Numbered from the stretch's first letter, positions 9,229-26,265 are shown. The stretch: 64,000 bases of DNA from Ruminococcus sp. (GCA_015066785.1 SVNT01000004.1:126376-190375); one strand, 5' to 3'. The notes: generated from the letters alone by a model not told the origin. A program made the numbers and translations.

Positions 9229-9299
9229 GTCATTAACTTTGCTATTTTTGCAAATCTGCTGACATTTTCGTTTTGTTCTGCTAGAATGATTTTCGGAAT

Positions 9300-9611: not shown

Positions 9612-9653
9612 CTCCGATACTATGCTATATCGTTAATTTTATACGATTTCTTA

Positions 9654-9682
9654 TTGACATATAATAATTAAAATAGTATAAT
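9654..9682 (+). promoter_or_regulatory. Consensus sigma-A-type promoter facing the T7SS genes
   Basis: TTGACA (9654-9659), 17 nt spacer, TATAAT (9677-9682). Lies in the divergent region between HTH copy 1 and the receiver-like gene. Confidence 0.6.
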
Positions 9683-9778
9683 AATTACGAATATACTCAG
9701 TATAAGGATAATATGGAGAGTGACAGCCGATTTATTCGGATAACAAGGTATATATTTATCGCAAAGGAGGAAAAAACG

Positions 9779-10189: not shown

Positions 10190-10211
10190 AATGTAAACGG
10201 GAGTTTTTATT

Positions 10212-11237
10212 ATGCAGAAAAAATCCAAAATCATCATAATCTCAATAGCGGCGGCACTCGTTCTGGTAGTGGGAGTGTTCACTGCAATATCCCTCATCGG
10301 CTCGTCGGAAGCCCCCGTAGTGCAGGCGGGCACAAGCGAACAGCTCTCGCTGGGGCAGAAGTTCCTCATTGACCTTGAGTATGAAAAAGCCGTGGCGGAG
10401 TTCAATGCCGTAATCGAAATCGAGCCTAAGAATGTCGACGCCTACATAGGTCTTGCCGACGCATATATCGGTATGGGCGATGAAGAAAAGGCAATCGAAA
10501 CCCTCGAAAAAGGTCTTGCCGAAACAGGCGACGAAAGACTGACGGCAAAGCTTGATGAGATGAAGAAGGCTGAAGAAACGACGGTTGAAACAACTACGGT
10601 GCCCGAAACGACAACAACGGCAGAAACCACGCCCGAAACGACAGCAGAAACGACAACCGCACCACAGGGTGCAAGAACAGAAAGAGTCGATAACGACGAT
10701 GGCTCGTATTGGATAGAAGAATACGATTCAAATGGGAATTATATAAAGTCAAGTTTTTATCGTGCCGACGGAACGCTTGAGCATATAGATGAATTTGTTC
10801 CTGATAGACCTGGTTGGATAAAGTACAGTTTTTACAGTGCTGACGGAATGCTTGAGGAGATAGGTGAATACGATTCGGATGGGAAATTGATAAAATGGAG
10901 TCGGTATAGCGCTGACGGAACGCTTGAGCAATACGATATATCTGAATACGATTCGGATGGGAAATTGATAAAATGGAGTCAGTATAGCGCCGACGGAACA
11001 CTAGATTATTACAATATATTTGAATACGGCGTTAAGGAACTTCAATACAGCTATAATAGTGACGGAATGATAACGGAGGTTGCCGTAAACGAACGGTATG
11101 AAAGCGGAGCTTTAAAAAAGCAGACTAGATATACATATTATGATGATGTTGATTATAACGGTATCATTCCCGAATACTGCGATATTACATGGGTTAAAGA
11201 ATACAATGACGGTGAATGTCTTGAGAGTTTCTTGTAG
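10212..11237 (+). CDS. Signal-anchor + TPR N-module protein A, YD/MORN-like repeat ectodomain
   Basis: MQKKSKIIIISIAAALVLVVGVFTAISLIG TM, then a TPR-like LIDLEYEKAVAEFNAVIEIEPKNVDAYIGLADAYIGMGD, a Thr/Glu linker, and repeated YDSDGKLIKWS.YSADGTL units. Confidence 0.75.
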   Translation: MQKKSKIIIISIAAALVLVVGVFTAISLIGSSEAPVVQAGTSEQLSLGQKFLIDLEYEKAVAEFNAVIEIEPKNVDAYIGLADAYIGMGDEEKAIETLEKGLAETGDERLTAKLDEMKKAEETTVETTTVPETTTTAETTPETTAETTTAPQGARTERVDNDDGSYWIEEYDSNGNYIKSSFYRADGTLEHIDEFVPDRPGWIKYSFYSADGMLEEIGEYDSDGKLIKWSRYSADGTLEQYDISEYDSDGKLIKWSQYSADGTLDYYNIFEYGVKELQYSYNSDGMITEVAVNERYESGALKKQTRYTYYDDVDYNGIIPEYCDITWVKEYNDGECLESFL

Positions 11238-11249
11238 GGGGCAACAGAT

Positions 11250-11918
11250 ATGAAAAGCAAAAAATTATGCTATATAATCGATGTGGTTATATTGCTGTCG
11301 CTTATTGCGGTGTGGGGGTATATTCTTATCAAAGAACTGCCCATAAAAACCGTGATTGCTGTTGCTGTACTTTCTCTTATACTTATTATACTCGGCGTTG
11401 TTGTTCTTTTTATGGCAATGAGAAGTAATTATGATGAAAAAAAGCCGGAACCTGTTGTGCAGGAGGATGAAATTCCTGAGGAAAAGGCAGAGAAGAAAAA
11501 GGTAAATAACAATCCCCCTACGCAGTTTCAGTTTGATCCGTCTACGGAATATGTATTTGGCTCCGATGATAACAGGAATACTGCGGACGAAACGGAAATC
11601 ATACCAACAAATAAGAATTACCGCATAGAATTGCGTGACAAGAATAATCCCGTAAAAACCTATCAGACATCATTCTCGGACGAGGCTGTCATAGGCAGAA
11701 TAGAGGGGCGTTGCAATATTGTCATTGCCGACGAAAAGAGCATATCCAGATGTCACTGCAGATTGTTCGTTGAAAACGGCAGGATTATGGCAGAGGATCT
11801 CAAATCATCGAACAGAACATATATAAACGGTACACAAGTCAGTGAAACTGCGCTTGAAATAAAAAGCGGTGATGAGCTTAAAATGGGTAGGGCAAAATTT
11901 ATTGTCACAATAAATTAG
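11250..11918 (+). CDS. FHA-domain membrane protein
   Basis: Two N-terminal TM helices. C-terminal AVIGRIEGRCNIVIADEKSISRCHCRLFVENGRIMAEDLKSSNRTYINGTQV is an FHA signature. Confidence 0.8.
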   Translation: MKSKKLCYIIDVVILLSLIAVWGYILIKELPIKTVIAVAVLSLILIILGVVVLFMAMRSNYDEKKPEPVVQEDEIPEEKAEKKKVNNNPPTQFQFDPSTEYVFGSDDNRNTADETEIIPTNKNYRIELRDKNNPVKTYQTSFSDEAVIGRIEGRCNIVIADEKSISRCHCRLFVENGRIMAEDLKSSNRTYINGTQVSETALEIKSGDELKMGRAKFIVTIN

Positions 11919-11927
11919 GAGGCTTTT

Positions 11928-13694
11928 ATGGAATATTGCGAATACACAAATGCAGGTGTGGTGCGCAATGTCAATCAGGACGCTGTACTTTCGCTTTGTA
12001 TGAACAACTCGGGACTGTTTGTTGTCGCAGACGGAATGGGCGGTCATACCGACGGAGATGTTGCAAGCGGGGCTGTCAGGAGTGCCTGTCTTAAATGGTG
12101 GAATATGTCGTTCATGGCAAATTCGGATATGGATTTGCTCTCGGCTGTTGAGGGGATAAAATCCGCATTAGAGGCCGTGAATACCGAACTTATATCCAGA
12201 ATGGAAGGTACAGGCAAAATCTGCGGAACAACTGTCGCTGTACTCTTTATACATAACGGTGCATATGCCGCTATGAATATAGGTGACAGCAGAATATATC
12301 TGTTGAATAAAAAAGGTGTGCGAAAAATTTCATTTGACCACACCTTGAATTCGTTTAAGGAAATAAAAAATATCAGAGTATCGAAAAAGGATAAACTTAC
12401 ACAGGCAATAGGGGTGAACAAAAGCCCTGATTGGTATTGCGCAACAGACACATTGAAGGGTAACGAAAGATTTTTTATCTGCACAGACGGTGTTTATAAA
12501 TATGTAGATGATGATATGCTTTTTTCCGTGATAAAAAATCGTTCGGAAGAAGATATAAAGGAAGAAATCGAAAAGCAGGTTATTCTGAATGGGGCGCCCG
12601 ATAATTTTTCTTTCATTTCGGTAAATCCGAAAAAAGAAAACAATAAAATATCAAAAAAACCGCTTATTATTGTTTCGGCAATAGCAATTTCACTTTTTAT
12701 TGTGTTTGCAGTAATTTCGGGGATTGCCGTTTCAGGCGGAAGTCATGCGGATGTACAGGTAACCATATCGGATAAGCTGTCGTTGGGGCAGAAGTTCCTT
12801 ATCGACCTTGAGTACGAAAAAGCCGTGGCGGAGTTCAACGCAATCATTGAGATTGAGCCTAAAAATGTCGACGCTTATATAGGCCTTGCCGACGCATATA
12901 TCGGGATGGGTGACAAAAACAAAGCAATTGAAACTCTCGAGAAAGGTTTTTCAGAAACAGGCGACGAAACTATCAGGGCGAAACTCAATGAGATAAGAAA
13001 GGTTGAAGAAACAACAGAGGAAACAACAACGGTTATTGCCGAGCCCGAAAAGAAACCAGTCATAAAAGCGATAAATTATTTCGATCCGAATGCTGGGGCA
13101 TATCAATATAATGCACCGGCGAATTTTATCAATTATATTTATAATGATAAAGGTCAGATAGAAAAAGAAATAGACGGTTATGATGGCAGAGGGGGTTTCT
13201 CATTTGTTTATAACTATGATTCAGACGGAAGATTGCTATCAAAAGAGCAGATTGCAGGCTGGAATGAACCAATGGGTAAGATAACTCTAAACTATAACGA
13301 GAGCGGTTTACTTGTGTCAGAAGAATATATGACCTATTCTTATTTTTCGGAATACACACCGAGAGATGCAGAAAAAAGATATATTATATATACTTATGAT
13401 AACGAAAACAGAATAGTAAAAGCAGACTACTATACAGAAGAAAAGAAAGAATACTATGTAGTTATGCAATATGATGAAAAGGGCAGAATTAAAATCAAAC
13501 AAACATTTAATGCAAATGATGAAGTTCTTGTTTGTTATTATTCCGAATATGACGAAAATGGACTTATTGTAAAAGAAATCAAATGTGATTCATCAAATAA
13601 TCATATCGGATATGTGACATATGAATACGATTACAATATTTTGTCAACTAACACATATTATCCACATTCCGAGTGGGGATATGACAGCTACTAA
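11928..13694 (+). CDS. PP2C-family Ser/Thr phosphatase fused to TM + TPR N-module homolog + YD/MORN-like repeats
   Basis: VADGMGGHTDGDVAS and ICTDGV PP2C motifs, TM (LIIVSAIAISLFIVFAVISGIAV), then LSLGQKFLIDLEYEKAVAEFNAIIEIEPKNVDAYIGLADAYIGMGD as in the anchor family. Confidence 0.85.
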   Translation: MEYCEYTNAGVVRNVNQDAVLSLCMNNSGLFVVADGMGGHTDGDVASGAVRSACLKWWNMSFMANSDMDLLSAVEGIKSALEAVNTELISRMEGTGKICGTTVAVLFIHNGAYAAMNIGDSRIYLLNKKGVRKISFDHTLNSFKEIKNIRVSKKDKLTQAIGVNKSPDWYCATDTLKGNERFFICTDGVYKYVDDDMLFSVIKNRSEEDIKEEIEKQVILNGAPDNFSFISVNPKKENNKISKKPLIIVSAIAISLFIVFAVISGIAVSGGSHADVQVTISDKLSLGQKFLIDLEYEKAVAEFNAIIEIEPKNVDAYIGLADAYIGMGDKNKAIETLEKGFSETGDETIRAKLNEIRKVEETTEETTTVIAEPEKKPVIKAINYFDPNAGAYQYNAPANFINYIYNDKGQIEKEIDGYDGRGGFSFVYNYDSDGRLLSKEQIAGWNEPMGKITLNYNESGLLVSEEYMTYSYFSEYTPRDAEKRYIIYTYDNENRIVKADYYTEEKKEYYVVMQYDEKGRIKIKQTFNANDEVLVCYYSEYDENGLIVKEIKCDSSNNHIGYVTYEYDYNILSTNTYYPHSEWGYDSY

Positions 13695-13714
13695 ACACAC
13701 AACGGAGAAAGATT

Positions 13715-15880
13715 ATGTTTAAACAAGGCGAATTGCTGAACGGGACATACAGAATAATAGAAAACATAGGCTCAGGTGGTGGCGGTGAAATTTACAAAGC
13801 CTATCATACCCACCTCAAATGTAATGTTGCCGTTAAACTTATAAAAGAAAATATAAAAGGAAAGCTTGATGACAGGGCGGAAGCAGACATACTCAAAAAA
13901 ATCAAGCATTCATATCTTCCACAGGTTTTTGACTTTGTTGAAACCGATAACGGTGACATCTATACCGTTATGGAATTTATAGAGGGTTCTTCTTTTCAGG
14001 AGCTTATAAACAACGGCAGAAAGTTTACGCAACAGCAGGTGCTTAAATACGCAAAGCAGATTTGCGAGGCGCTTGCTTATCTGCATACAAGAAAGCCGGC
14101 TATTGTTCATAGCGATATAAAGCCTGCAAACATTATGCTTACCCCCGAAGACAATATATGTATAATAGATTTCAATATCTCCTCCGCACTTAGCGACGGG
14201 GGAGCTTTTGCCGTTGGGAAAAGTGACGGATATTCTCCACCGGAGCAATATGTAAAGAAAAAGAATAACGGTGCTTATCAAGTCGGAGAAGACCAGACTG
14301 AATTTATAGAAAATACCGAAATTATTGCAGAATCCGATACAACAACCGTAATGGCAGACGAAACCGAAGTCATAACAGATACCGATGTTTCAGAAAGTGC
14401 AAAAAGCGACGGTTTCGTTTCAAAATTAATGGTTTCCAGAGCGATTATAAATGAAAGTTCGGATGTCTATGCAGTAGGAGCGACATTATACTGTCTCATA
14501 AGCGGAAGAAGACCCGAAAAGTCGATTGACAAGGTTACTCCGATAACCAGACTGGATGTTACAGCAAGCTACGGACTGAAACATATTATATCAAAAGCAA
14601 TGGAGGTTTCGCAGAAAAAGAGATATGCCAATGCGGGAGAGATGCTTGAAGCACTCAAAGATATTCATTGCATTGAAAAGCTTTACAGAAGTTTTGTTGT
14701 AAGAAATCGTATTGTATACTCTCTTCTGATTTTCGGAACAGCTTTGTTTTCAGTAATTGCGTTTATGGGATACGAAAAAATAGGTATAGAAAAAGCCGTT
14801 ACATATAACGAATATGCCGAAAGACTGGTTGTTCTTCGTGAAAGCGGAGATGTCGACGACTTTGAACAGATTTATTCGGCGGCTGAGGAAATCTATCAGG
14901 ACAGGCTGGATATACATTTCCAGAAGGCACTTTTTCTTTTTGAAAGGGCAGAATACGACGAGTGTATAGAATATATAGATGAAATACTTGCAGATCACCC
15001 CGAATACAATGATGACGCTGAAATGGCAGATCTTTTATTCGTGAATGCAAATTGTTTTTTCGAAAAAGAAGATTACATTTCAGCTATACTGAAGTATAAG
15101 GCTGCAATATACAAAAATTCCGAAAACGGAGAATATTATCGTGATTACGCCATTTCTCTTGCAAGAACAGGGGAACTTGAAAAAGCAGCAGATGCCCTGA
15201 ATCAGGCGACACAGCTCGGTCTGTCCGAAGAAAATATATGCCTTGTCGAAGGCGAAATAGAATTTGTCAGAGGAAGATATGACAAAGCGGAAGAAGCTCT
15301 CCTGAAATGCATAGACATTTCATCCGATGACTATATAAAACAGCGTGCGTATATTCTTTGCGGCAGTGTATATAATCAGTCTGGAAAGCTCACGGAAAAC
15401 GTACGGCTTATGGAATGTGCGCTTGAAGACCTGCCTGAAGAAAGACTGTACGGTATTTATGAAATTCTGGCACAGTGCTATCTGGACATCGGCAAGGAAA
15501 CAGGCAGTGTCGATTATTATCTTAAAGCGATTGATGTGTTTTCGATTATGCAGAAAAAAGGCATCGGCGGATATAGAGTATCCGAAAGTAAAGCAGTGGC
15601 TTTTTACACTGTCGGAGATTGCGAATCTGCAAAAGCAGAATTTGAAAATATGAAAAATGATTTCGGAGAAAATTACAGAATAAGTATGTATCTTGCTTAT
15701 GTGGAACTGCTTGAGGAATCACGCAAGAGCAATAACAACAGGGATTATTCGGATTTTCTGCGGCATTACAATGATGCCGAAAAGCTTTACAAAGAACAGC
15801 TGAAGGAAGGAACTACCGATATTGAAATGCAGGTTCTTGAAGACGCTTATCTTCAGCTCAGGGATGGTAATTGGTTTTAA
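13715..15880 (+). CDS. Hanks-type Ser/Thr protein kinase with TM and extracytoplasmic TPR repeats
   Basis: GSGGGGEIYKA G-loop, VAVKLI Lys, HSDIKPANIM catalytic loop, DFN, SPPE. TM is IVYSLLIFGTALFSVIAFMGY, followed by long TPR-like helical repeats. Confidence 0.85.
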   Translation: MFKQGELLNGTYRIIENIGSGGGGEIYKAYHTHLKCNVAVKLIKENIKGKLDDRAEADILKKIKHSYLPQVFDFVETDNGDIYTVMEFIEGSSFQELINNGRKFTQQQVLKYAKQICEALAYLHTRKPAIVHSDIKPANIMLTPEDNICIIDFNISSALSDGGAFAVGKSDGYSPPEQYVKKKNNGAYQVGEDQTEFIENTEIIAESDTTTVMADETEVITDTDVSESAKSDGFVSKLMVSRAIINESSDVYAVGATLYCLISGRRPEKSIDKVTPITRLDVTASYGLKHIISKAMEVSQKKRYANAGEMLEALKDIHCIEKLYRSFVVRNRIVYSLLIFGTALFSVIAFMGYEKIGIEKAVTYNEYAERLVVLRESGDVDDFEQIYSAAEEIYQDRLDIHFQKALFLFERAEYDECIEYIDEILADHPEYNDDAEMADLLFVNANCFFEKEDYISAILKYKAAIYKNSENGEYYRDYAISLARTGELEKAADALNQATQLGLSEENICLVEGEIEFVRGRYDKAEEALLKCIDISSDDYIKQRAYILCGSVYNQSGKLTENVRLMECALEDLPEERLYGIYEILAQCYLDIGKETGSVDYYLKAIDVFSIMQKKGIGGYRVSESKAVAFYTVGDCESAKAEFENMKNDFGENYRISMYLAYVELLEESRKSNNNRDYSDFLRHYNDAEKLYKEQLKEGTTDIEMQVLEDAYLQLRDGNWF

Positions 15881-15891
15881 GGAGTCGGATT

Positions 15892-16047
15892 ATGGTTGAG
15901 TTGATAAAAAATCTTACAATCGGTGAATTTATGTTTTATGGCGGAATTATCGGTGCGGGACTTTGTGTTCTTGCAATGATAGTCGGGATACCACTTACGG
16001 CAATTGGCAAAAAGCAGATAAAGAACAAAATATATAAGGAGTATTGA
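15892..16047 (+). CDS. 51-aa single-pass membrane peptide
   Basis: AAGGAG RBS overlaps the kinase stop. MVELIKNLTIGEFMFYGGIIGAGLCVLAMIVGIPLTAIGKKQIKNKIYKEY. Below the ORF-track length cutoff. Confidence 0.5.
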   Translation: MVELIKNLTIGEFMFYGGIIGAGLCVLAMIVGIPLTAIGKKQIKNKIYKEY

Positions 16048-16049
16048 TT

Positions 16050-17312
16050 ATGCAGAAAAAATCCAAAATCATCATAATCTCAATAGTGGCGGCACTCGTT
16101 CTGGTAGTGGGAGTGTTCACTGCAATATCCCTCATCGGCTCGTCGGAAGCCCCCGTAGTGCAGGCGGGCACAAGCGAACAGCTCTCGCTGGGGCAGAAGT
16201 TCCTCATTGACCTTGAGTACGAAAAAGCCGTGGCGGAGTTCAATGCCGTAATCGAAATCGAGCCTAAGAATGTTGACGCTTACATAGGCCTTGCCGACGC
16301 ATATATCGGTATGGGCGATGAAAACAAGGCAATCGAAACCCTCGAAAAAGGTCTTGCCGAAACAGGCGACGAAACTATTAAGGCGAAACTTGATGAGATT
16401 AAAGAGGCTGAGGAGACAACAGTGGAGGTAACTACTACTCCTGAGGTTACGACAACACCCGAGGAAACAACAGTAGAGGAAAATAGAGAAAATGACCCCA
16501 ATGGTGGGTATTGGATTCATAAATATGATACAAACGGAAATAAAATAAGTTCTTCTCATTATTTTGAAGGCGGAGATTTTGAATATATAATTTATTATAA
16601 ATATGATCAAAATGGAATTTTAATAAAAACAACAAAGGATATAGCCGATTTTGGTTATGAAGTGTATTCGCGAGAGGAATTTGCATATGATTCTCGTGGT
16701 AATATCATTGAAGAAACATTTCTTGGTTACAATTCCGATGATGATACATTGGATTTAATATGGAGAAATGTATATGAATATAATTCAAATTCGAAAAAAA
16801 TAAAAGAAACAAAATATGGATGGAAAAACGAACTCGAAGAAGAAATAGAATATCTTGATAACGGAGTCGTTTGTTTTACATATTACAGCGATGGTAAAAT
16901 AAGTGCTTATATAGAAGAAAATTCAAACGAAAACAGGATAAAAGAAATCTGGTATGATTCAGACGGCAATGTTGACTATTATTCCCGAAGCGAATACGAA
17001 TACTATCCGAATGGATTAATAAAAAAAATAACAGATTATAACGAAGACGGAAGTATAGATGATATTTATACATACGAATACGATTCACAGGGAAGAGAAA
17101 TCAAGTGTACTGAATATAACAATAGTGGCAAGATCAGATATATCAGAACCAGAGAATATGGTTCAAATGGACGACAGATAAGGCTTACTCTTTATAAACC
17201 TGATGGAACGATACAACTTATGAGAGAATGGGATCTGGAAGGTAATCTTATAAAAGAATATGGCTATGATCCCTATCAGATTGTCATCCATTCAAACGGT
17301 TCAGGAGCATAA
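16050..17312 (+). CDS. Signal-anchor + TPR N-module protein C, YD/MORN-like repeat ectodomain
   Basis: Same N-module as 10212, with one A->V change. Start is the ATG at 16050, not 16044. C-terminal repeats include YDTNGNKI, YDQNGILI, YDSDGNVDY, YDSQGREI. Confidence 0.75.
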   Translation: MQKKSKIIIISIVAALVLVVGVFTAISLIGSSEAPVVQAGTSEQLSLGQKFLIDLEYEKAVAEFNAVIEIEPKNVDAYIGLADAYIGMGDENKAIETLEKGLAETGDETIKAKLDEIKEAEETTVEVTTTPEVTTTPEETTVEENRENDPNGGYWIHKYDTNGNKISSSHYFEGGDFEYIIYYKYDQNGILIKTTKDIADFGYEVYSREEFAYDSRGNIIEETFLGYNSDDDTLDLIWRNVYEYNSNSKKIKETKYGWKNELEEEIEYLDNGVVCFTYYSDGKISAYIEENSNENRIKEIWYDSDGNVDYYSRSEYEYYPNGLIKKITDYNEDGSIDDIYTYEYDSQGREIKCTEYNNSGKIRYIRTREYGSNGRQIRLTLYKPDGTIQLMREWDLEGNLIKEYGYDPYQIVIHSNGSGA

Positions 17313-17418
17313 TTTAAGAAAGTTCTGATAATCCAATGAGAATAACAATACGAAAATTTTATGTTATATAATTAACGGCACACCAAGATAAACCCCTCTC
17401 GAAAGGACTTGAAAAATT

Positions 17419-20400
17419 ATGGCATATATATTTTATTTCAACTTCAAAGAAAATGTTTATGAATACCCTCTCCCTGCCGTGAGAAACAGAGCGGTAAGCA
17501 TCGATTTGTCTGAATTTTCATCGGAAAAGGGCGTTATAAATCTTGAAATGTTTGACGGAGTGTGGAAACTTCTCCCCTCTGATGATTTCGATTATTTTAT
17601 CAACGGAGCTCCAATAAAGGAAAAGGAAATCGGTGACGGAGATAAATTTACCGTAAGAGGAAAAAAGGGCGGACTTCAGTTTATGATTTTTGCTCTCATT
17701 GCGTCTGAAAACATAAGGGTATATAAAAAATGGTCGCTTGACGGTGTTGATACTATAACTATCGGTATGGACGACAGCTGCGATATTGTGTACAAGGAAC
17801 AGTTTGTAAGCCATAATCATGCCACTTTGAAAAGGAATGGCACCGATTTTTTCATAAGCGATAGCAGTACCAACGGTACATTCCTGAACGGCGTTAAAAT
17901 ATCGGAGGAAACAAAGCTTTCGGTATTTGACACGATTTATATTCTGGGGCTGAAAATAATATATCTGGGTGGATATATTGCAACAAACAAAATTCTTGAG
18001 CTGGATGTAAATCTTGCGGAAGTCTGCGATACAACCATTGAGTATGAGCCTTACGAGGACGAATCTGATTTTTCACGCTCTCCGAGAAGGACAGAGCCGC
18101 TTGATGACGAAGTCGTTGAAATAGAGGCTCCCCCTGCGCAGCACAAGGCAACGAGTCAGCCACTTATTTTTATAATCGGGCCGTCTGTAACAATGCCCTT
18201 GCCGATTATGATTTCGATTGTTATAAATATGATGTCATCAGGGAATACAGCAAATCCGCTTATGTATCTCGGAACAGTCATATCTGTTGTATGTTCGGGA
18301 TTTATCGGTGCAGGATGGGCACTTGCTCACCAGTTCTACAATAAAAAGACGATGAAAAAACAAGAGGAAGAACGAGTAAAAGCATACGGAGAATATATTG
18401 CCAAAAACGAAAAGCTTCTTTCCGAAAAGCAGGATAAAAACAAAAGTATAATGGAGGAGCAGTTTTTATCTTCGGATAAACTTATGAGCAGAATTCTTGA
18501 AGATAACACTTCCTTGTGGAACCGCAATATAAATCACGCTGATTTTTCGACAATCCGTTTCGGCACAGGGTCAGTAAAAATGACTAATGGAATTTCAATT
18601 CCGAAGGAACGGTTTTCTATGAGCGATGATTCGCTTGCGGATAAGCCGAGGGAGATTTTCGACCGTTATAATATAATGGAGGGTTGCGCATACACTACAA
18701 GACTGATTGGCAATAAAATCTGGGGCATTCTCGGTGAATATGAGAATGTCATGAATATAGTGAACAATATTGTTGTTCAGCTTTCTGCACTCCATAGCTA
18801 CAATGATATAAAAATCGCTATTCTTTGCAGAGAAAATGAAAAAGATAAATATCTGTGGATGAAATGGCTGCCGCATATGTTCACTGCCGATAAAAAAATA
18901 AGAATGTTCGGGTGTGATGGAAATTCCATAAAGAATGTATGCAGTTTTCTTGGTGGAGAACTTCGTTCAAGGGAAGAAAACGCAGGGGATTCATCAAAGA
19001 ATCAGATGATCCTTCCGCATTATTTTGTTATCTGCACAGATAAGAATATTCTTGAGAAAAATATTATCTCAAAGTACATAATGAACAATTCGGAATTAGG
19101 GTTCACATTTATTCTGGCTTATGAAAAGATGGACAAGCTCCCCAATGAGTGTAAGGTGATTATCCAGCATGACGATACATATAGTGGAATATATTCACTT
19201 TCATCAACAATAGATGAAACAAATTCAGTGGTTTTTGATAATGTTGATACAAAGAAAGCAGAAAGATATTCAAGAGCAATAAACGGACTTTATCTGACCG
19301 AATTCAGTCAGGGTGAAATTCCTGCATCTGTTGATTATCTTGATATGCTTGGCATAGGCAGATTTGAACAATGGAATCTTATTAAAAAGTATAAAGAAAA
19401 CCGTTCTTATGAGAGTATTGCGTCGTTTATAGGAATAGGCGCAGGAAACCGTCCTGTTATTCTTGATATAAGCGAAAAAATGCACGGTCCTCACGGTCTT
19501 GTTGCAGGAACAACAGGTTCGGGAAAAAGTGAGACTATACAGACCTTCATACTTTCTCTTATTCTCAATTACAGCCCCGATGAAGTGGCGTTTATCCTTA
19601 TAGACTACAAGGGAGGAGGAATGGCTGCAGCTTTTAACGGAATTCCTCATCTTGCGGGAATAATCACAAACCTCGGAGGAGATACAGGAGACGGCGAAAT
19701 CGATGAAAATCTCACAAGAAGAGCGCTTATTTCAATAAAGAGCGAAATAAAGAGACGACAGAAGATTTTCAATCGCTTTAAAGTAAATCATATTAATCAG
19801 TACATAAAAATGTATCGTGGCGGTACGGTCAGCGAAGCGTTGCCTCATTTAATTATTATATCGGACGAATTTGCAGAACTTAAACATAAACAACCCGAAT
19901 TTATAAAAGAACTTGTCAGTGTGGCGAGAGTTGGAAGAAGTCTGGGAATTCATCTGATACTTGCAACCCAGAAGCCTGCGGGAGTTGTTGATGAAGAAAT
20001 ATGGAGTAACTCACGCTTTAAAATCTGTCTTAAAGTTCAGGACAAACAGGATAGTATGGGCATGCTGAAACGCCCCGAAGCAGCATATCTTGTCAACACA
20101 GGACGAGCATATATGCAGGTTGGAAATGATGAAATTTTTGATATGTTCCAGTCGGGATATTCCGGGGCAGAGTATATTCCGACAGATGATTTTGTTTCTT
20201 CAAAGGACAAAGAAGTGATAATGATTGACATCGACGGAACATATCTTGAAGAGAATATAATGTCTGAAAATAAAAATCAGACCGAAGTTTCTCAGCTTAA
20301 AGCGGGTATAGACTATATAATTGCTGTTTCTGCCGCAAATCAGATCAAGGCAACAAGAAAACTCTGGAACGAATCACTGTCATCGCTTATAGGTCTTGAT

Positions 20401-22011
20401 AAAATGGATACCTCTGATATTGATTTTTCAAAAGGTCTTATATCTGTATTTGGTATGATTGATAATCCCGAAAAGCAATCCCAGTATCCCGCAACGATAG
20501 ATATATCAAAAACATCGAACATACTTGTTTCAGGTATGTCGGGTTCGGGAAAATCAACATTCCTCCAGACAGTTGTCTATTCACTCGTTTCAAACTATAC
20601 GCCCGACGAATTCCAGTTCTATTTTATTGACTTTTCGAGCAGAACAACAAGAAAGTTTGAAAAACTGCCTCATTGCGGCGGAGTTGTTTTCCAGGAAAAC
20701 AGCGAGCATATAGAAAGACTTTTCAAGCTTCTTGATAAAGAGTGCGAAGAAAGGAGAAGGCTTTTTGACGAGGCGAACACAGGTGGATTCGGAGAGTATG
20801 TAAAGAAGAAAAGAATACCTATGATTTTGCTTGTGATAGATAATTACGCAGGCTTCGCCGAAGGCTACCCTGAATTTGCCGAAAAGCTTGCAGCCTTTTC
20901 AAGAGACTGTCTTAAGTATGGAATTCAGCTTATTATCTCAGCAGGCAATCCAAACGATGTCAAATATAAAATGCAGCAGAATATAGGTTACAAAATCGCA
21001 TTACAGCTTTCCGACCGTTATGGATATAACGAGGTGTTCGGAAAATCCCCCGACTTTGCGCCATCCAAATACGCAGGCCGTGGAATTATCAAGGAAAACG
21101 AGCTTCTTGAATTCCAGACAGCTGTACCTTTTGAAATTGCAGATGAAACAGCACGCTCCGACAGAATGATTTCGGATATTTCAGATATTGCACGGAAATA
21201 TAAAAAGCACAAATCCGCAAAGAAAATTCCTGCTTTGCCGAAGGATGAGCCGTATGTTGATTTTTACAGAAACAACAAATCAGACGGACTGATTCCGTTG
21301 GGATATGATACAAATGATATTTCTGTCATAGCACCACTGAGAAAAGATATATTCTGCCTTGCAGTAGGTGGGCGTGAAGAAAAGAGCATTGCTCTCGTAT
21401 TTGACAATCTCGCTTTTTGCGCAAAGCAATCAGGTGCGGTTGTTTGGTATTTCAGGACGACATCGGATATTCTTTGTCAGTCGGAATTTGTGGATAAAAT
21501 CTATACCTCTGCTGACATTATAGAGTTCCTTGAGGGAGTACAGAAAGAATTTGAAGTTGCTTCAGAAATAAGAGGAAAATACAAGGATACAATGAATGCA
21601 ACTGCATTGGAAGAAAAAGTTGTGGAAGAAAAGAAGATGCTGTACATATTCATAGACAGCATGGCTGAATTCCACAAAATAATATACGATGCTTCCAATA
21701 AGTATCCTCTTAACACGCTTGTCGAGGAAACATTCAGATATGGAGAAAAGAGAGGCGTAAGCTTTATTGCGGGATTTGGCCAGGACAGCTATATCGATGC
21801 CGTTCATAGCAATGCCTGCAAGAACTTCCTTCTCAACAAGACGATTCTTCATATGGGCGGATGTCTCGAACAACAGAAGATGTATTCTTCATCATTGCCA
21901 TATAACATCCAGAACAAACCTCTCGATATGAATGTCGGATATTTCTTTGACGGAACGTCCGAAAGACGTATATTCATACCATTATCGGAACGGAGGGAAA
22001 ACGATGCTTGA
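17419..22011 (+). CDS. essC: T7SS FtsK/SpoIIIE-family ATPase EssC
   Basis: 1530 aa. N-terminal FHA-like ITIGMDDSCDIVY..HATL..STNGTFLNG, then two TM helices. Walker A GTTGSGKSE and GMSGSGKST, with a third degenerate P-loop region (VGGREEKS). Confidence 0.9.
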   Translation: MAYIFYFNFKENVYEYPLPAVRNRAVSIDLSEFSSEKGVINLEMFDGVWKLLPSDDFDYFINGAPIKEKEIGDGDKFTVRGKKGGLQFMIFALIASENIRVYKKWSLDGVDTITIGMDDSCDIVYKEQFVSHNHATLKRNGTDFFISDSSTNGTFLNGVKISEETKLSVFDTIYILGLKIIYLGGYIATNKILELDVNLAEVCDTTIEYEPYEDESDFSRSPRRTEPLDDEVVEIEAPPAQHKATSQPLIFIIGPSVTMPLPIMISIVINMMSSGNTANPLMYLGTVISVVCSGFIGAGWALAHQFYNKKTMKKQEEERVKAYGEYIAKNEKLLSEKQDKNKSIMEEQFLSSDKLMSRILEDNTSLWNRNINHADFSTIRFGTGSVKMTNGISIPKERFSMSDDSLADKPREIFDRYNIMEGCAYTTRLIGNKIWGILGEYENVMNIVNNIVVQLSALHSYNDIKIAILCRENEKDKYLWMKWLPHMFTADKKIRMFGCDGNSIKNVCSFLGGELRSREENAGDSSKNQMILPHYFVICTDKNILEKNIISKYIMNNSELGFTFILAYEKMDKLPNECKVIIQHDDTYSGIYSLSSTIDETNSVVFDNVDTKKAERYSRAINGLYLTEFSQGEIPASVDYLDMLGIGRFEQWNLIKKYKENRSYESIASFIGIGAGNRPVILDISEKMHGPHGLVAGTTGSGKSETIQTFILSLILNYSPDEVAFILIDYKGGGMAAAFNGIPHLAGIITNLGGDTGDGEIDENLTRRALISIKSEIKRRQKIFNRFKVNHINQYIKMYRGGTVSEALPHLIIISDEFAELKHKQPEFIKELVSVARVGRSLGIHLILATQKPAGVVDEEIWSNSRFKICLKVQDKQDSMGMLKRPEAAYLVNTGRAYMQVGNDEIFDMFQSGYSGAEYIPTDDFVSSKDKEVIMIDIDGTYLEENIMSENKNQTEVSQLKAGIDYIIAVSAANQIKATRKLWNESLSSLIGLDKMDTSDIDFSKGLISVFGMIDNPEKQSQYPATIDISKTSNILVSGMSGSGKSTFLQTVVYSLVSNYTPDEFQFYFIDFSSRTTRKFEKLPHCGGVVFQENSEHIERLFKLLDKECEERRRLFDEANTGGFGEYVKKKRIPMILLVIDNYAGFAEGYPEFAEKLAAFSRDCLKYGIQLIISAGNPNDVKYKMQQNIGYKIALQLSDRYGYNEVFGKSPDFAPSKYAGRGIIKENELLEFQTAVPFEIADETARSDRMISDISDIARKYKKHKSAKKIPALPKDEPYVDFYRNNKSDGLIPLGYDTNDISVIAPLRKDIFCLAVGGREEKSIALVFDNLAFCAKQSGAVVWYFRTTSDILCQSEFVDKIYTSADIIEFLEGVQKEFEVASEIRGKYKDTMNATALEEKVVEEKKMLYIFIDSMAEFHKIIYDASNKYPLNTLVEETFRYGEKRGVSFIAGFGQDSYIDAVHSNACKNFLLNKTILHMGGCLEQQKMYSSSLPYNIQNKPLDMNVGYFFDGTSERRIFIPLSERRENDA

Positions 22012-22735
22012 TGTTTATGTATATGACTCCGATATATCAAGGCATGTTTCAGTACAAAAATATTGCTTTACATATTTTATTCAGAATAACATCCAGTCTG
22101 AAATCAGATGCATTACCGATAATGTAAAAGAAGCGGGAGAAGTTTTTTCAAAAGCAGAAAGCCAATCGATTTTCATAATAAGTTGTGATGAACATACTGA
22201 TTTTCTTATAAATTCATTGAGGAAAGGAAATCGTGAAAACTATCTTATAATAGTCGCAAATGATTTCAACGATATTCTTCAATATATGAAACCGGGACAT
22301 AATCCTTCCGGTTTCATATTGAGACCTATGACTCAGAATGATATAAATAAGCTCATAGGCGATATAATTTCGGATTATATATCGAAGAAGAAAGAGCACG
22401 GGTTCGGATGCTTTACATTCAAGTCGAAGTCAACGGAGTACAGCATACCCTTTGAGTCTATTCTTTCCTTTGAAAGCGGAAACAAAAAGATAATCGTAAA
22501 AACTTCGGAAAATGAATATTCTTTTTACGGAACGCTTGATGAAATCCAGAATAATCTCCCTGATGGATTTATAAGAATTCATAAAAGCTTTATCATCAAT
22601 ATAGCGTGGATAAAACAGATTGATTATTCCGACTCAAAAATCATTTTAAACAATGGCAATATTGTTTATTTTTCGAGGACATACCGAAATATCATCAAGG
22701 AACTTTTTAACATTGGAACAGAAACTGTTTCATAA
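22004..22735 (+). CDS. Atypical receiver + LytTR DNA-binding regulator, translationally coupled to essC
   Basis: The ATG at 22004 overlaps the essC stop at 22009-22011. The C-terminal half (IPFESILSFES...IRIHKSFIINI...YFSRTYRN) is LytTR-like. Confidence 0.75.
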   Translation: MLDVYVYDSDISRHVSVQKYCFTYFIQNNIQSEIRCITDNVKEAGEVFSKAESQSIFIISCDEHTDFLINSLRKGNRENYLIIVANDFNDILQYMKPGHNPSGFILRPMTQNDINKLIGDIISDYISKKKEHGFGCFTFKSKSTEYSIPFESILSFESGNKKIIVKTSENEYSFYGTLDEIQNNLPDGFIRIHKSFIINIAWIKQIDYSDSKIILNNGNIVYFSRTYRNIIKELFNIGTETVS

Positions 22736-22749
22736 GAAAGGAAATTTAT

Positions 22750-23007
22750 ATGACAAAAATACTTGTCGAAATCAGCTGTCCGTCAACTGCAAGAAGTTAC
22801 GAATTCTGGATTTCAAAGCAGATGCTTATACGGGATATTATAGCAATCTGTATGAAAGAAATCTGTATGACTGAAGGCAGTAAAAGCATTTTCAGTGACA
22901 GCAAGAATATAAGCCTTTTCTCGCAAAGATTGTGTATGCCGCTTAACGAAAACTATACTGCAACGGAAGCGGGAATTATAGGCGGAGACAAACTTATGAT
23001 TGTGTAA
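22750..23007 (+). CDS. esaB: YukD/EsaB-like ubiquitin-fold T7SS protein
   Basis: 85 aa. MTKILVEISCP...YEFWISKQMLIRDII...EAGIIGGDKLMIV matches the YukD pattern, and the gene sits next to essC. Confidence 0.7.
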   Translation: MTKILVEISCPSTARSYEFWISKQMLIRDIIAICMKEICMTEGSKSIFSDSKNISLFSQRLCMPLNENYTATEAGIIGGDKLMIV

Positions 23008-23022
23008 AAGGAGATTTTATTT

Positions 23023-24621
23023 ATGCAGAAAAAATCCAAAATCATCATAATCTCAATAGCGGCGGCACTCGTTCTGGTAGTGGGAGTGTTCACTGCAATA
23101 TCCCTCATCGGCTCGTCGGAAGCCCCCGTAGTGCAAGCGGGCACAAGCGAACAGCTTTCGTTGGGGCAGAAGTTCCTCATTGACCTTGAGTACGAAAAAG
23201 CCGTGGCGGAGTTTAATGCGGTAATAGAAATCGAGCCAAAGAATGTCGACGCTTACATAGGTCTTGCCGACGCATATATCGGTATGGGCGATGAAAACAA
23301 GGCAATAGAAGCCCTCGAAAAAGGTCTTGCTGAAACAGGCGACGAGAGAATCCGGGCAAAGCTTGATGAGGTGAAGAAAGCAGAAGAGACGACAACAGCG
23401 ACAGTTACAACATCTGAAACGACAGAAGCCAGCCCCACAGTTATCATAAAAGAAGATATAGAATTAGCAATAACAAGTGATAAAAAGGCTACAATTACAT
23501 TAAAAAATCTTGACATAAAAGATAGTTATGTTGTTAATAAAGAAACATCTATTATGAATGAGTTGGAATACAGCTGGGGTGTAAGAATGCTCGGAAATCC
23601 TAAGGTACTGGAAGCCTCAATAACATCATGGGCAAACCCTCCCGGCTCTCCTGGGCTGAATAAAGAAAAAACAATTGAAGAAATGCAAAGCGACTTATGG
23701 GATTGCTATGAAGGCGGCGCTGGTCTTGTTGAAAACGCCGTGACAAGTACAACATGTTTTTCAGATAAAATTATATGGGATGTGGTAGTTCCCGATGAAT
23801 ATGATTTTAGTTTTTACAATGTAACAGAATTTGAAATCAGGATTTATGACGGAACTGGCAATTGGGAAGAGCGGGCTGTTGTATTGAATGATGAAACAAC
23901 GGTGGAAACCACAACGGCTCCTGAAACCACAGCTGCATTAGAAAAACCTGAAATAAGATATTTTGACGATTGTTGTTATGCGAAATATCAGTATGATTCA
24001 GACGGAAGGGTAGTTTATGAGGAATTTTATAATAAGATAGAAGATAATATTCCTTATTTGTGTTGTAAAATTCTTTATGATTCGGATGGAAATTTCATAG
24101 GTGAAACAATTGCAACTCCGCCAAGAGGGGGTTATAGTTTGCGTGAGTATGACTCACAGAATAAATTGATAAAAAGCACAGAATATGAGTGGAGCAATGG
24201 CGAAGACATTATTGAAGCCTATTCGAATTATGAGTATAATTCAAATGGCAAACTTGTAAAAGAAATTTATTATTCTTTAAACTATGAAACTCAAGAATTT
24301 GAATTGAGTACGATTTATGAGTATGATTCAAATGGCAAACTTGTAAAAGAAATTTATTATTCTTTAAACTATGAAACTCAAGAATTTGAATTGAGTACGA
24401 TTTATTATGAGTATGATTCAAACGAAAAACTGATAAAAAGAACTACATACAGTACCGATGGAACATATAAGGTGACAGAAGAAAGTGAGACAACTTACTA
24501 CAATGCGGACGGAACAGTAGATTGGGTTTTCTCACGTGGGCTGAAAGATGAAAAAAATGGTCGGCTTAGCACATATGAAAAACATTGTCACCACCACAAA
24601 CCTGGCGCACAGTACGATTAA
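23023..24621 (+). CDS. Signal-anchor + TPR N-module protein D, mixed beta-rich + YD/MORN-like ectodomain
   Basis: Same N-module. The C-terminus contains a perfect 87-bp tandem duplication. Confidence 0.75.
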   Translation: MQKKSKIIIISIAAALVLVVGVFTAISLIGSSEAPVVQAGTSEQLSLGQKFLIDLEYEKAVAEFNAVIEIEPKNVDAYIGLADAYIGMGDENKAIEALEKGLAETGDERIRAKLDEVKKAEETTTATVTTSETTEASPTVIIKEDIELAITSDKKATITLKNLDIKDSYVVNKETSIMNELEYSWGVRMLGNPKVLEASITSWANPPGSPGLNKEKTIEEMQSDLWDCYEGGAGLVENAVTSTTCFSDKIIWDVVVPDEYDFSFYNVTEFEIRIYDGTGNWEERAVVLNDETTVETTTAPETTAALEKPEIRYFDDCCYAKYQYDSDGRVVYEEFYNKIEDNIPYLCCKILYDSDGNFIGETIATPPRGGYSLREYDSQNKLIKSTEYEWSNGEDIIEAYSNYEYNSNGKLVKEIYYSLNYETQEFELSTIYEYDSNGKLVKEIYYSLNYETQEFELSTIYYEYDSNEKLIKRTTYSTDGTYKVTEESETTYYNADGTVDWVFSRGLKDEKNGRLSTYEKHCHHHKPGAQYD

Positions 24622-24630
24622 GCTTAACGA

Positions 24631-24663
24631 AAAAAGGACAACCATTAAAGGTTGTCCTTTTTT
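24631..24663. terminator. Bidirectional terminator between convergent anchor genes D and E
   Basis: GGACAACC ATTAAA GGTTGTCC hairpin flanked by A-run and T-run. Confidence 0.75.
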
Positions 24664-24669
24664 GTGGGG

Positions 24670-26235
24670 TTAGTCGATATATTCAGACAAATCCCATTCA
24701 TAATATGAGGGGTTGCTCGTTGAAATGTTGTCGGGGCAGTTTGTTATATAGCAATTTGTAGTTATTACTGTATCGAGTTTCTGCATATCGGCAAGCGGGC
24801 TGAGGTCTGAAACATTTGTGTCGTATAAAAAAAGACATTCAAGGTCTTTACAATTCTCAAGCGGGCTGATATCCGAAACCTGTGTATCTCCGATATTCAA
24901 CATTCTGAGTTTCGTCATTCCCGATAATGCGGATATATCATATATGTAGATGGTATCGTAATTTGATGCTGTTGTATCAGATACAGATAATGCTCTCATT
25001 TCTGTCATGCCCGATAACGCAGATAAATCCTTAGGATTATTTCCCGAAAGCTCAAGCACTTTCAGTTGTGTCATTCCTGATAATGCAGATATATCGCTTA
25101 TGTTGTTGTTGCTAAGATTTAGAGTTTCAAGTTTTGTCATTCCTGATAATGCAGATATATCGCTTATGTTGTTGCTGGCAAGACTTAGATATTCAAGTTT
25201 TGTCATTCCTGATAATGCAGATATATCACTTATGTTGGTACTATAAAGATATAACTCATTCATATTTGTCATATCAGATAATGCAGATATATCGCTTATG
25301 TTGGTGTAGCTAAGAGCTAGATATTCAAGTTTTGTCATTCCTGATAATGCAGATATATCGCTTATGTTGTTGTAGCCAAGACCTAGAAATTCAAGTTTTG
25401 TCATTCCTGATAATGCGGATATATCGCGTATGTTGTTGTAGCCAAGTTGGAGGAAATCAAGGTTTACAAGCCCTGAAAGTCCTGAAATATCATAAAGTGC
25501 TGAACAATGTAATTCGAGATGCTTTAATTGTTTCATTTCACCTATAACCGATATATTTTCTTTTGAAAGGTTAAAGCCTGCTATTTCAAGAACTTCGAGT
25601 TGTTCGAGTAATGCTATTTTTTCAAGTTCTTTCGGATTAAACATTGCATTTTCGACAACAAAACTCTGTTCTATATCTATATCGAGATCTTCTTTAAACC
25701 ATTCTACCTCTTCTTTGATGTATTCCTCTGCGTCATCATAGCTATCATAATTTTCGATATTACTGCTTATTATAACAAGCGATTTACAATCGGCAGGGAT
25801 TTCGTTTGAAAATATTTCTATCGGCTTTGGTTTCAATTCTTCAATCTTCTTTTCAATCTTTTCGATTTTTTCATCGACAATCTTCTTATCCTCATCAGAA
25901 AGTTCGTCATAGCCTTCCTTGATAGCAACAAGCCCTTTCTCAAGGGTTTCGATTGCCTTGTTTTCGTCGCCCATACCGATATATGCGTCGGCAAGACCTA
26001 TATAAGCGTCGACATTCTTTGGCTCGATTTCGATTACGGCATTGAACTCCGCCACGGCTTTTTCGTACTCAAGGTCAATGAGGAACTTCTGCCCCAGCGA
26101 GAGCTGTTCGCTTGTACCCGCCTGCACTACGGGGGCTTCCGACGAGCCGATGAGGGATATTGCAGTGAACACTCCCACTACCAGAACGAGTGCCGCCGCT
26201 ATTGAGATTATAATAATTTTCGATTTTTTCTGCAT
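24670..26235 (-). CDS. Signal-anchor + TPR N-module protein E, leucine-rich-repeat ectodomain
   Basis: Same N-module through ...ETLEKGL, then about ten 22-aa LRR units (LSGMTKLEYLSLASNNISDISA). Confidence 0.8.
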   Translation of the reverse strand: MQKKSKIIIISIAAALVLVVGVFTAISLIGSSEAPVVQAGTSEQLSLGQKFLIDLEYEKAVAEFNAVIEIEPKNVDAYIGLADAYIGMGDENKAIETLEKGLVAIKEGYDELSDEDKKIVDEKIEKIEKKIEELKPKPIEIFSNEIPADCKSLVIISSNIENYDSYDDAEEYIKEEVEWFKEDLDIDIEQSFVVENAMFNPKELEKIALLEQLEVLEIAGFNLSKENISVIGEMKQLKHLELHCSALYDISGLSGLVNLDFLQLGYNNIRDISALSGMTKLEFLGLGYNNISDISALSGMTKLEYLALSYTNISDISALSDMTNMNELYLYSTNISDISALSGMTKLEYLSLASNNISDISALSGMTKLETLNLSNNNISDISALSGMTQLKVLELSGNNPKDLSALSGMTEMRALSVSDTTASNYDTIYIYDISALSGMTKLRMLNIGDTQVSDISPLENCKDLECLFLYDTNVSDLSPLADMQKLDTVITTNCYITNCPDNISTSNPSYYEWDLSEYID

Positions 26236-26265
26236 AAATAAAATCTCCTTCTGAATTTTAACAGA

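Follow-up and report, generated by a model that had tools for sequence, protein, structure and literature searches.

To our knowledge, it is not known how the type VII secretion systems (T7SS) of Gram-positive bacteria sense or choose their target cells. Phosphorylation-linked T7SS variants, including T7SSj and T7SSe/f, were defined by Garrett, Higginson & Palmer in 2024 (PMC11217815) on the basis of RefSeq, in a survey without Oscillospiraceae and without a multi-copy family of proteins that combine a transmembrane (TM) segment with tetratricopeptide repeats (TPR). These kinase/phosphatase/FHA variants were described from genomes alone and without any candidate for their input signal; the locus described here supplies some. 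It lies in a stretch of 64,000 nucleotides (nt) from Ruminococcus sp. (GCA_015066785.1 SVNT01000004.1:126376-190375), hereafter called the window, from the start of which all positions are counted. Five of its genes, i.e. A, B, C, D and a gene encoding a PP2C-type phosphatase, share a TM-TPR module that is joined to different outer domains.

In T7SSj, an EssC-type ATPase bearing an FHA domain, WXG100 proteins and a small protein in the EsaB/YukD position are accompanied by a TPR-bearing membrane kinase (TsjD), a PPM/PP2C phosphatase (TsjF), an FHA protein (TsjJ) and a small TM protein (TsjK), and the window encodes predicted counterparts of each, with an FHA protein that has two TM segments as TsfJ does. 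TsjD is a membrane kinase with a TPR C-terminus and TsxF was described as cytoplasmic (PMC11217815). Two features set the window apart, i.e. T7SSj possesses the large Ig-like TsjI, none of which is encoded in the window, and the window's phosphatase, unlike the cytoplasmic TsxF, is predicted to be membrane-anchored with a TPR and YD-repeat ectodomain. By gene content, the locus is a kinase/PP2C/FHA-type T7SS cluster, nearest to the published T7SSj.

None of the ingredients is new by itself: T7SS variants of this class, TPR domains, YD repeats, gene conversion and the displacement of cassettes have each been described before. In the literature we found no description of the combination seen here, i.e. 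a phospho-regulated T7SS operon that contains several members of a TM-TPR family with exchangeable heads, one of them the phosphatase, and the transfer of such heads across species. The family evolves like a receptor repertoire, with a homogenised constant anchor and swapped heads, also across species. It offers a clean natural case of concerted evolution and cassette exchange in bacteria, as well as a way to approach the input of T7SS regulation in Clostridia that are abundant in the gut.

A TM-TPR protein family within the locus

Genes A (10212-11237), B (16050-17312) and C (23023-24621) as well as the PP2C fusion (11928-13694) are located on the plus strand, and gene D (24670-26235) on the minus strand. 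The four full copies of the module occupy 10192-10532 in A, where the copy comprises the ribosome-binding site and codons 1-107 with the signal anchor and two TPR motifs, 16033-16370 in B, 23008-23343 in C and, on the minus strand, 25929-26250 in D; the corresponding ATG codons are at 10212, 16050, 23023 and 26235. The PP2C gene carries its TM and TPR module at 12648-13001 (plus strand), with a near-identical TPR half at 12775-12950. A repeat search of the window returned the same elements as a direct-repeat family (10200-10499, 16038-16337 at 97 % and 23011-23310 at 94 % identity, with a weak copy of 60 % at 12633-12932), as inverted arms at 25926-26258 whose complementarity to each of the three direct copies is 93-96 %, and as an arm in the PP2C gene (12775-12946) that is 88 % complementary to 25934-26105. 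The placements made in the initial annotation, i.e. three direct copies, an inverted one and a TPR half within the PP2C gene, are thus borne out, and no copies beyond these five were present in the 64 kb of the window.

TPR_19 was matched in all five proteins (Pfam, 1e-8 to 1e-10), and module residues 45-103 can be aligned with PDB entries of TPR proteins designed from the consensus (E 1e-10 to 1e-38), the module containing two near-consensus TPR motifs, i.e. helix-turn-helix repeats of 34 residues. In an AlphaFold2 model of protein A, residues 6-26 form a TM helix and residues 41-119 four helices and a capping one (pLDDT 60-87); the Thr/Glu-rich residues 121-153 are disordered, and from 155 to 340 the chain is folded into beta hairpins (pLDDT 70-85). 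Based on the positive-inside rule, the Lys-rich N-terminus and the 23-residue hydrophobic segment probably form an uncleaved signal anchor, which would leave the remainder of the protein extracellular. The TM segment of the PP2C protein, labelled by NCBI as ‘MAG: tetratricopeptide repeat protein [Ruminococcus sp.]’, is homologous to that of the other four but has diverged, with 70 % amino acid (aa) identity over module residues 1-119. Since both its TM and TPR parts are homologous to the module, the PP2C protein represents a whole family member with a phosphatase at its cytoplasmic end.

The outer domains had initially been regarded as unrelated to each other, which overstates their diversity: the A, B, C and PP2C proteins all carry DUF2963/RHS-like YD repeats with a mutual identity of 24.6-31.2 % (BLAST, E 1e-12 to 4e-29), and among the window members D alone has a different outer fold. 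In A, the module leads via a Thr/Glu linker to YD/DUF2963 repeats. Besides its YD repeats, C contains one further domain in the middle, which was modelled as a beta sandwich by AlphaFold2 (pTM 0.70) and gave no significant fold match in the PDB (best E 0.026), and in a PDB sequence search with B and C the matches were confined to the TPR part. In D, a charged helical linker precedes internalin-like leucine-rich repeats (LRR), with eight LRR_4 matches. The Pfam matches of the YD proteins to RHS_repeat, DUF2963 and MORN_2 are weak. Foldseek placed the hairpin run of A among single-layer sheets such as OspA and the YD shells of Rhs proteins and teneurins, with low TM-scores (0.09-0.15 for the Rhs shells). 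Identification of the proteins as T7SS substrates or Rhs toxins was dismissed, as they have Sec-type signal anchors and lack an LXG or WXG part, a toxin and an Rhs core.

Comparative data were throughout metagenome-assembled genomes (MAGs) and short metagenome contigs, with four ruminant-gut Oscillospiraceae MAGs, i.e. S1 (L006/7), S2 (L008/9), S3 (L010/11) and S5 (L061/62), as comparison genomes. In relatives elsewhere, the heads comprise LRR, PASTA with WG repeats, Big_1, SpaA/SdrD-like, transglutaminase-like, alpha-helical and propeller types. The YD repeats of gene C include an 87-nt tandem duplication (24224-24397; 98 % identical), which points to a very recent, putative repeat expansion in the ectodomain, and the length encoded by the gene at position B of S5 varies between strains (475 aa in L061, 449 aa in L062). 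Upstream of the XRE gene in S5 (L061, 934-7534), six further YD-repeat surface proteins are encoded in an array, with lipoprotein signal peptides or plain TM anchors and without the TPR module; YD heads are therefore paired with at least three kinds of anchor.

The genes of the family are interleaved with those of the T7SS. The plus-strand operon runs from A through an FHA protein, the PP2C fusion, the kinase, a 51-aa protein, B, EssC, a LytTR protein and an 85-aa protein to C, and gene D stands convergent to C, behind an acyltransferase gene with an inverted duplicate of the promoter/XRE region. The FHA membrane protein with its two TM segments (11250-11918) matches FHA at 3e-17 and has no DUF6382 match. 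The PP2C fusion consists of a catalytic part at aa 1-235 (PP2C_2, 5e-11; motifs DGMGGH, GDSR, TDG and DN in the translation), the TM and TPR module, a Thr/Glu linker and YD repeats. It is followed by the Ser/Thr kinase (13715-15880; Pkinase, 1e-37), in which one TM segment leads to a putatively extracellular TPR array, and by the 51-aa single-TM protein (15892-16047), which is kept between the kinase gene and gene B, shows 74-78 % aa identity at the matching place in S1, S2, S3 and S5, and is a candidate for a small T7SS membrane component of the TsxK/EssA type. EssC (17419-22011) has an N-terminal FHA domain and two FtsK_SpoIIIE stretches and scores 1070 bits against TIGR03928 (T7_EssCb_Firm; cut-off 778). 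The 85-aa protein (22750-23007) has no Pfam, NCBIfam or PDB profile match; it is kept beside essC in the sister loci and is an EsaB/YukD equivalent by position only. All of these are encoded on the plus strand.

The order module-FHA-PP2C::module-kinase-51aa-module-essC-LytTR-85aa-module is kept in S1, S2, S3 and S5, and 11 independent metagenome contigs have the window's arrangement. A word-indexed protein search with the module alone gave four weak matches, a figure that reflects the sensitivity limit of the tool and not rarity, and an exhaustive HMMER search gave 43,659 library matches at E<=1e-3, a number in keeping with the near-consensus character of the TPR. The family was recovered by this search and by further ones with full-length proteins. 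The entire module, at an identity of 55-75 %, is restricted to a small group with various C-termini, one PP2C fusion included, and the PP2C-TM-TPR fusion is confined to six protein clusters. A metagenome scan anchored on the 85-aa protein added one short, uninformative locus (L063). We then surveyed loci with one genome per species, which returned 33 loci from Clostridia-type genomes, and looked for essC, TPR kinase or WXG100 genes beside them. Such genes adjoin all loci in which the whole module is matched at an identity of at least 50 %, and altogether 19 of the 33, down to an EssC identity of 32 % (L038); modules directly adjoin essC or the TPR kinase in L012-16, 18, 19, 22, 23, 26, 31 and 38. 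The presumed tie of the module to T7SS therefore holds for the close subfamily and not throughout the distant relatives of 33-47 % identity, i.e. the broader TM-TPR architecture is not exclusive to T7SS.

On balance, we lean towards reading the five genes as one family of type II membrane proteins within a kinase/PP2C/FHA-regulated T7SS locus, in which the TM-TPR module would assemble with the secretion and signalling complex and the tail-less members would serve as co-receptors. That the family is a genuine part of this T7SS type we regard as likely; the co-receptor mechanism is more tentative and may well prove otherwise. Each protein is predicted to start with a Lys-rich cytoplasmic tail, one TM helix and a juxtamembrane two-repeat TPR with capping helix, followed by a Thr/Glu/Pro-rich stalk and a variable, putatively ligand-binding head (YD/DUF2963, LRR, beta-propeller or beta-sandwich). 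The constant TM-TPR module would be the element that assembles with the complex, with the TPR-ectodomain kinase, the module-bearing PP2C and the small TM protein as candidate partners. Two repeats are probably too short to form a binding groove alone, and the tandem TPR units of relatives (two to seven copies in P0005, P0030 and P0032) suggest stacking. Members with a six-residue cytoplasmic tail presumably cannot signal alone and would be co-receptors of the PP2C protein and/or the kinase. A ligand or contact at the wall-spanning heads might then shift the Thr phosphorylation that is read by FHA proteins, and this in turn might control, i.e. gate or aim, the assembly or firing of the T7SS. 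A link to signalling is given by the YD ectodomain class itself, which in the window is joined to the phosphatase and in S3 to T7SS-kinase paralogues: where the window has one kinase gene, S3 (RGIG6418; L011, 3442-9458) has three consecutive ones, and in at least one of them, P0289 (720 aa), a T7SS-type kinase domain and a TM segment are followed by a long YD-repeat ectodomain that replaces the TPR.

One might go further and speculate that a phosphorylation-gated T7SS draws its specificity from the TM-TPR proteins as exchangeable subunits. Their heads would recognise particular neighbouring cells or envelope cues, and the proteins would pair through the module with the PP2C protein or the kinase and set the phosphothreonine state read by FHA proteins, so that the cassettes would decide when, or against whom, LXG toxins are fired, a choice that would be retuned by trading them across species; we consider this extended scenario unlikely to hold as a whole.

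Several observations count against a role of the family in this pathway. The module has no detectable sequence similarity to the ectodomain of the kinase, and its TPR pair is so near to the generic TPR consensus that it says little about a specific partner. Internalin-like LRR, PASTA and SpaA-like heads are typical of plain adhesins. Of the 33 loci surveyed, 14 lack T7SS genes, mostly at 33-47 % identity and in some cases as arrays of 4-8 copies, and none was found within 10 kb in the distant TM-TPR relatives L024, L025, L028-30 and L032-37. In addition, the FHA domain of EssC (residues ~113-175) has GM in place of the expected phosphothreonine-binding GR, with SxxH and N retained. The separate FHA membrane protein retains GR, SxxH and N, and may thus be the phospho-dependent reader.

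Part of this evidence could equally be expected if the family were independent of the T7SS, i.e. if it consisted of fast-evolving surface adhesins in a recombination-prone island, with no tie to secretion or to the kinase and phosphatase. The arrays of distant relatives away from T7SS genes, the adhesin-like heads (Big_1 and SdrD-like domains among them) and the YD proteins of S5 on lipoprotein or plain TM anchors without TPR all fit such a view, and, if it were correct, the value of the locus would be reduced to that of an evolutionary curiosity. It does not explain, however, why module genes are interleaved in the operon, one between the 51-aa gene and essC and another directly after the 85-aa gene, why these positions are kept across genomes in which orthologue divergence at silent sites is saturated, and why one member is the PP2C of the locus itself. 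Moreover, T7SS-kinase paralogues that bear this ectodomain class are encoded in a sister genome, and gene D is served by a duplicated operon promoter region. We therefore regard free-standing adhesins as a serious, if rather unlikely, explanation, and retain the membership of the family in the T7SS locus as the preferred one.

Homogenised modules and exchanged ectodomains

Among the four full copies, nt identity is 94.4-97.7 % over codons 1-102, so that the near-identity first read by eye stands up to alignment. The copies differ by 4-16 synonymous and 1-3 non-synonymous changes, corresponding to 0.06-0.26 synonymous substitutions per synonymous site (dS) and 0.004-0.013 non-synonymous ones (dN), and dN/dS in the module is far below 1. 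As first described, the differences are mostly synonymous. The first ~110 nt, initially given as identical between copies, are so for A and C only (nt 1-113); B has one change (nt 38) and D three (nt 15, 21 and 24). The repeat sets in at the AAGGAG ribosome-binding site, ~15-20 nt 5' of the ATG, and runs to ~nt 307 in copy D and to ~nt 325-330 in A, B and C. In the PP2C copy, compared over codons 45-102, the TPR half shows 84.5-86.8 % nt identity to the others, with a dS of ~1 and a dN of 0.02-0.04, and over a longer stretch of 189 nt the identity is 82-87 %.

Evidence that this similarity is maintained by gene conversion comes from a comparison of 18 copies from the window, S1, S2 and S3 over the 189-nt TPR half. 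Each window copy, including the one in the PP2C gene, is 82-97 % identical to other window copies and 71-82 % identical to any copy elsewhere, and the PP2C copy of the window is only 74-76 % identical to the PP2C copies of other genomes. In a neighbour-joining tree, the window copies, PP2C included, form a clade with 98.5 % bootstrap support and the S1 copies one with 99.8 %, while a clade of all PP2C copies receives 0 %. The window clade also holds on third codon positions alone (99.2 %); therefore, the effect acts at the DNA level and is not due to convergent selection on the protein. As a rule, a TPR unit from a genome with several copies has its closest relative within that very genome. 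Within a genome, paralogues resemble each other more than orthologues do across genomes, and this holds at silent sites too. Between the window and the sister genomes, the EssC and kinase orthologues show a dS of 1.65-2.3, and in the window paralogues dS is saturated at codons 108-125 and in the ectodomains, versus 0.06-0.26 in the module. Positions A, B, C and PP2C hence predate the species splits, and the modules were homogenised afterwards.

The GC content at third codon positions (GC3) is 0.54-0.60 in the window modules versus 0.22-0.42 in the rest of these genes and their neighbours. This rise is limited to the homogenised stretch, including the TPR half inside the PP2C gene, is not seen in the sister genomes (0.37-0.48), and may be due to conversion with a GC bias. 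With a GC3 of 0.22-0.36, the ectodomain cassettes are conspicuously rich in AT. A permutation test of the Sawyer/GENECONV type on the four copies gave weak evidence of mosaic tracts (global P=0.089; B-D, P=0.006; C-D, P=0.028). With only 41 polymorphic sites, too few to give such a mosaic test power, we relied on the phylogeny across genomes instead. Taken together, the module is very probably homogenised within each genome by gene conversion, as had been proposed from the window alone.

The ectodomains are exchanged as cassettes. The cassette of gene B (16427-17399, plus strand), comprising the end of the linker, the YD repeats and the 3' intergenic stretch, is replaced in one metagenome contig (L064) and present in another (L066). 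L064 is a conspecific contig of 3.3 kb that is 97-98 % identical to the window in the 3' end of the kinase gene, in the 51-aa gene and where essC begins. Its gene at position B combines a module that is a patchwork of B-, C- and A-type variants, a linker of A type (94 % identity to A and 70 % to B over nt 331-380) and an ectodomain with a DUF5050/LRP1-like beta-propeller, after which the homology to the window returns 19 nt before the essC start codon. L066, a contig of another species, is the converse case: its essC start is 98.3 % identical to that of S2 and its module of S2 type, and its ectodomain is, over ~900 nt, 97-100 % nt identical to that of gene B in the window. Here, the 5' breakpoint lies within the Thr/Glu linker and the 3' switch ~12 nt ahead of 70 nt over which the two parents do not differ, a place at which a k-mer chimera would not be expected to join; the B gene is frameshifted and its upstream context different, so that L066 may be a decaying or second locus. 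What weakens this evidence is that both are short, low-coverage metagenome contigs. Chimeric assembly is nevertheless unlikely because both junctions of L064, which preserve the open reading frame (ORF), and the 3' switch of L066 are located outside the stretch shared by the parents. With this assembly caveat, these natural recombinants show that ectodomain cassettes are exchanged between paralogues, strains and species, i.e. that the ectodomains are indeed interchangeable, and the module with the linker on the 5' side and a conserved flank on the 3' side (for B, the essC start) appear to be the homology arms that bracket the exchanged segment.

A third contig, L065 (1-2297), contains a D-type LRR gene that is 96 % identical to that of the window, with different neighbours and fewer LRR units, and that is preceded by 65-80 nt of the sequence found 5' of C in the window. 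We read it tentatively as a footprint of a C-to-D duplication or conversion. Ahead of this gene, L065 also has a fragment of the 3' end of the 85-aa gene and a 125-aa ORF that is similar to the N-terminal part of the FHA membrane protein; the start codon of the D-type gene is mutated to ATA, and the histidine-kinase gene behind it shares only 79 % identity with that of the window.

The convergent arrangement of C and D, with 325-nt inverted arms of 94 % identity 2.6 kb apart, together with the C upstream sequence in front of the D-type gene of L065, could suggest a recombination switch, in which the modules serve mainly as sites of programmed inversion or deletion. Such events would select the ectodomain that the T7SS operon expresses and so cause phase or antigenic variation among the cells of a clone. 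The C protein is encoded in one orientation in all 11 contigs that have it, however (assemblies display the majority form, and a rare inversion is possible), an exact-pattern scan of metagenome contigs did not reveal the inverted junction, and no recombinase gene adjoins these genes, which makes such a switch improbable.

Still less probable is that the copies are simply young duplicates, without conversion, whose C-termini were replaced later. The low dS of the modules would fit, as would the weak outcome of the mosaic test. Against this, positions A, B, C and PP2C are filled in all four sister genomes despite their silent-site divergence, the PP2C copy groups with its own genome and never with other PP2C copies, the L064 module combines sites of three types, and silent sites are saturated as early as codons 108-125 of the very same genes.

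The repeat begins at the ribosome-binding site and its first 113 nt are invariant between A and C, which would be compatible with a shared element at the 5' end of the mRNA, such as a translational control structure or a small RNA target. This constraint at the RNA or regulatory level is highly improbable, since folding of the four 5' regions does not exceed that of shuffled controls (z -0.31 to +0.60), the mostly synonymous changes and the low dN/dS are those of protein-level constraint, and the PP2C copy lies in the middle of a gene. Finally, although the window apparently derives from a MAG, a single real gene collapsed or copied by the assembler can practically be dismissed, given that each copy has private single-nucleotide polymorphisms and a different in-frame continuation, that the 11 contigs agree in arrangement, that the modules are base-identical in five loci from five samples, and that several other genomes have the same architecture. 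These five loci (L001-L005), in which all module copies compared equal those of the window, are for the same reason uninformative on polymorphism between strains.

Promoters, substrates and toxin cassettes around the core

The plus-strand operon is preceded by a sigma-70-like consensus promoter at 9654-9682 (plus strand). An inverted repeat of ~800 bp (9218-9712 versus 27524-28017; 77-85 % identity) brackets the T7SS core, and each of its arms holds a gene with an XRE-type helix-turn-helix, i.e. 9300-9611 on the minus and 27616-27993 on the plus strand. The right arm contains a near-consensus copy of the promoter (27582-27554, minus strand) before the acyltransferase gene and gene D, which it appears to drive, and D may thereby be co-regulated with the operon. 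Just 5' of A, a 158-aa ORF (9713-10189) represents a truncated paralogue (76-82 % nt identity) of the N-terminal part of the LytTR protein (21932-22735), without the LytTR DNA-binding domain.

Downstream on the plus strand are two WXG100 genes, 33202-33495 (TIGR03930, 57.1 bits, cut-off 44.85) and 33529-33852 (43.8 bits, i.e. just under this cut-off), both of which, as the secreted core substrates, are also recorded as WXG100 by Pfam; a third WXG100-like gene is located at 48912-49205. Ahead of the first pair, 32249-33178 encodes a protein with a WXG100-like N-terminus and a weak CHAP (peptidoglycan hydrolase) match, which is probably a cell-wall-degrading effector exported by the T7SS. The 440-aa protein encoded by 33921-35243 was read as LXG-like, with no family support. 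Between 39500 and 47850, mostly on the minus strand, the repeat families D3, D4, D6 and D10 mark orphan toxin C-terminal cassettes, and the cassettes at 39.5-48 kb share the junction ...GAVSKYADE... and alternate with small immunity-like genes, i.e. this is a typical polymorphic-toxin array 3' of a T7SS.

Comparison with other surface and signalling systems

For EsaA of T7SSb and TsxI of T7SSd/e/j, a role as conduit or in target recognition was proposed (PMC11217815). The window encodes no envelope protein of EsaA or TsxI size, there being, besides EssC, no ORF of more than 721 aa in its 64 kb. The TM-TPR proteins are likewise encoded in the T7SS locus and predicted to reach the cell surface, which leaves them as the only candidates in this locus for such a role. 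They have no sequence or architectural relation to EsaA or TsxI, differing in their single N-terminal anchor, smaller size (341-532 aa), multiple copies and exchangeable heads.

Like Listeria internalins, gene D encodes LRR units of 22 residues, and NCBIfam internalin models match at E 1e-45 to 1e-53. Its score of 179 bits is far from the cut-off of 1050, however, and there is neither a cap or IR match nor an LPXTG or GW anchor, so that the characters of class 1 internalins are lacking and D is anchored through its N-terminal TM-TPR module instead. Polymorphic toxin loci (LXG, Rhs and contact-dependent inhibition) also combine a constant N-terminal with a variable C-terminal part, the tips of which are swapped by homologous recombination, also between species. 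Here, by contrast, the heads are binding scaffolds without a toxin domain, genes A-D are not followed by a small immunity gene, and the constant part is a Sec-type signal anchor and not a targeting domain for a T7SS or type VI secretion system. With regard to Rhs/YD toxins in particular, the YD region of A (~185 aa) is too short for a closed shell and has no Rhs core motif and no toxin.

The type VI secretion systems have a Thr phosphorylation pathway made up of the kinase PpkA, the PP2C phosphatase PppA, Fha1 and the sensor proteins TagQRST. As in this pathway, the locus described here encodes a membrane kinase, a PP2C and an FHA protein together with a contact-dependent secretion system, and the logic that we propose for it, in which accessory envelope proteins would feed a surface signal to the kinase, is the same. 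The secretion system and the envelope are different, though, the accessory proteins are not homologous, and the phosphatase here, as its gene indicates, has an ectodomain of its own. An Agrobacterium case of Thr phosphorylation in type VI secretion is cited together with the T7SS variants (PMC11217815).

As a working analogy, the family may also be set beside the LRR receptors of plants. In this kingdom, receptor-like kinases (LRR-RLK), which have a cytoplasmic enzyme, are paired with receptor-like proteins (LRR-RLP), which are tail-less and need a signalling partner, and the ectodomains of both diversify quickly. The TM-TPR family similarly unites enzyme-bearing members, i.e. with a PP2C in the window and a kinase in a sister genome, and tail-less ones. 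The two families are not homologous, the element shared between members here is a TM helix with a juxtamembrane TPR, and the partnering is hypothetical.

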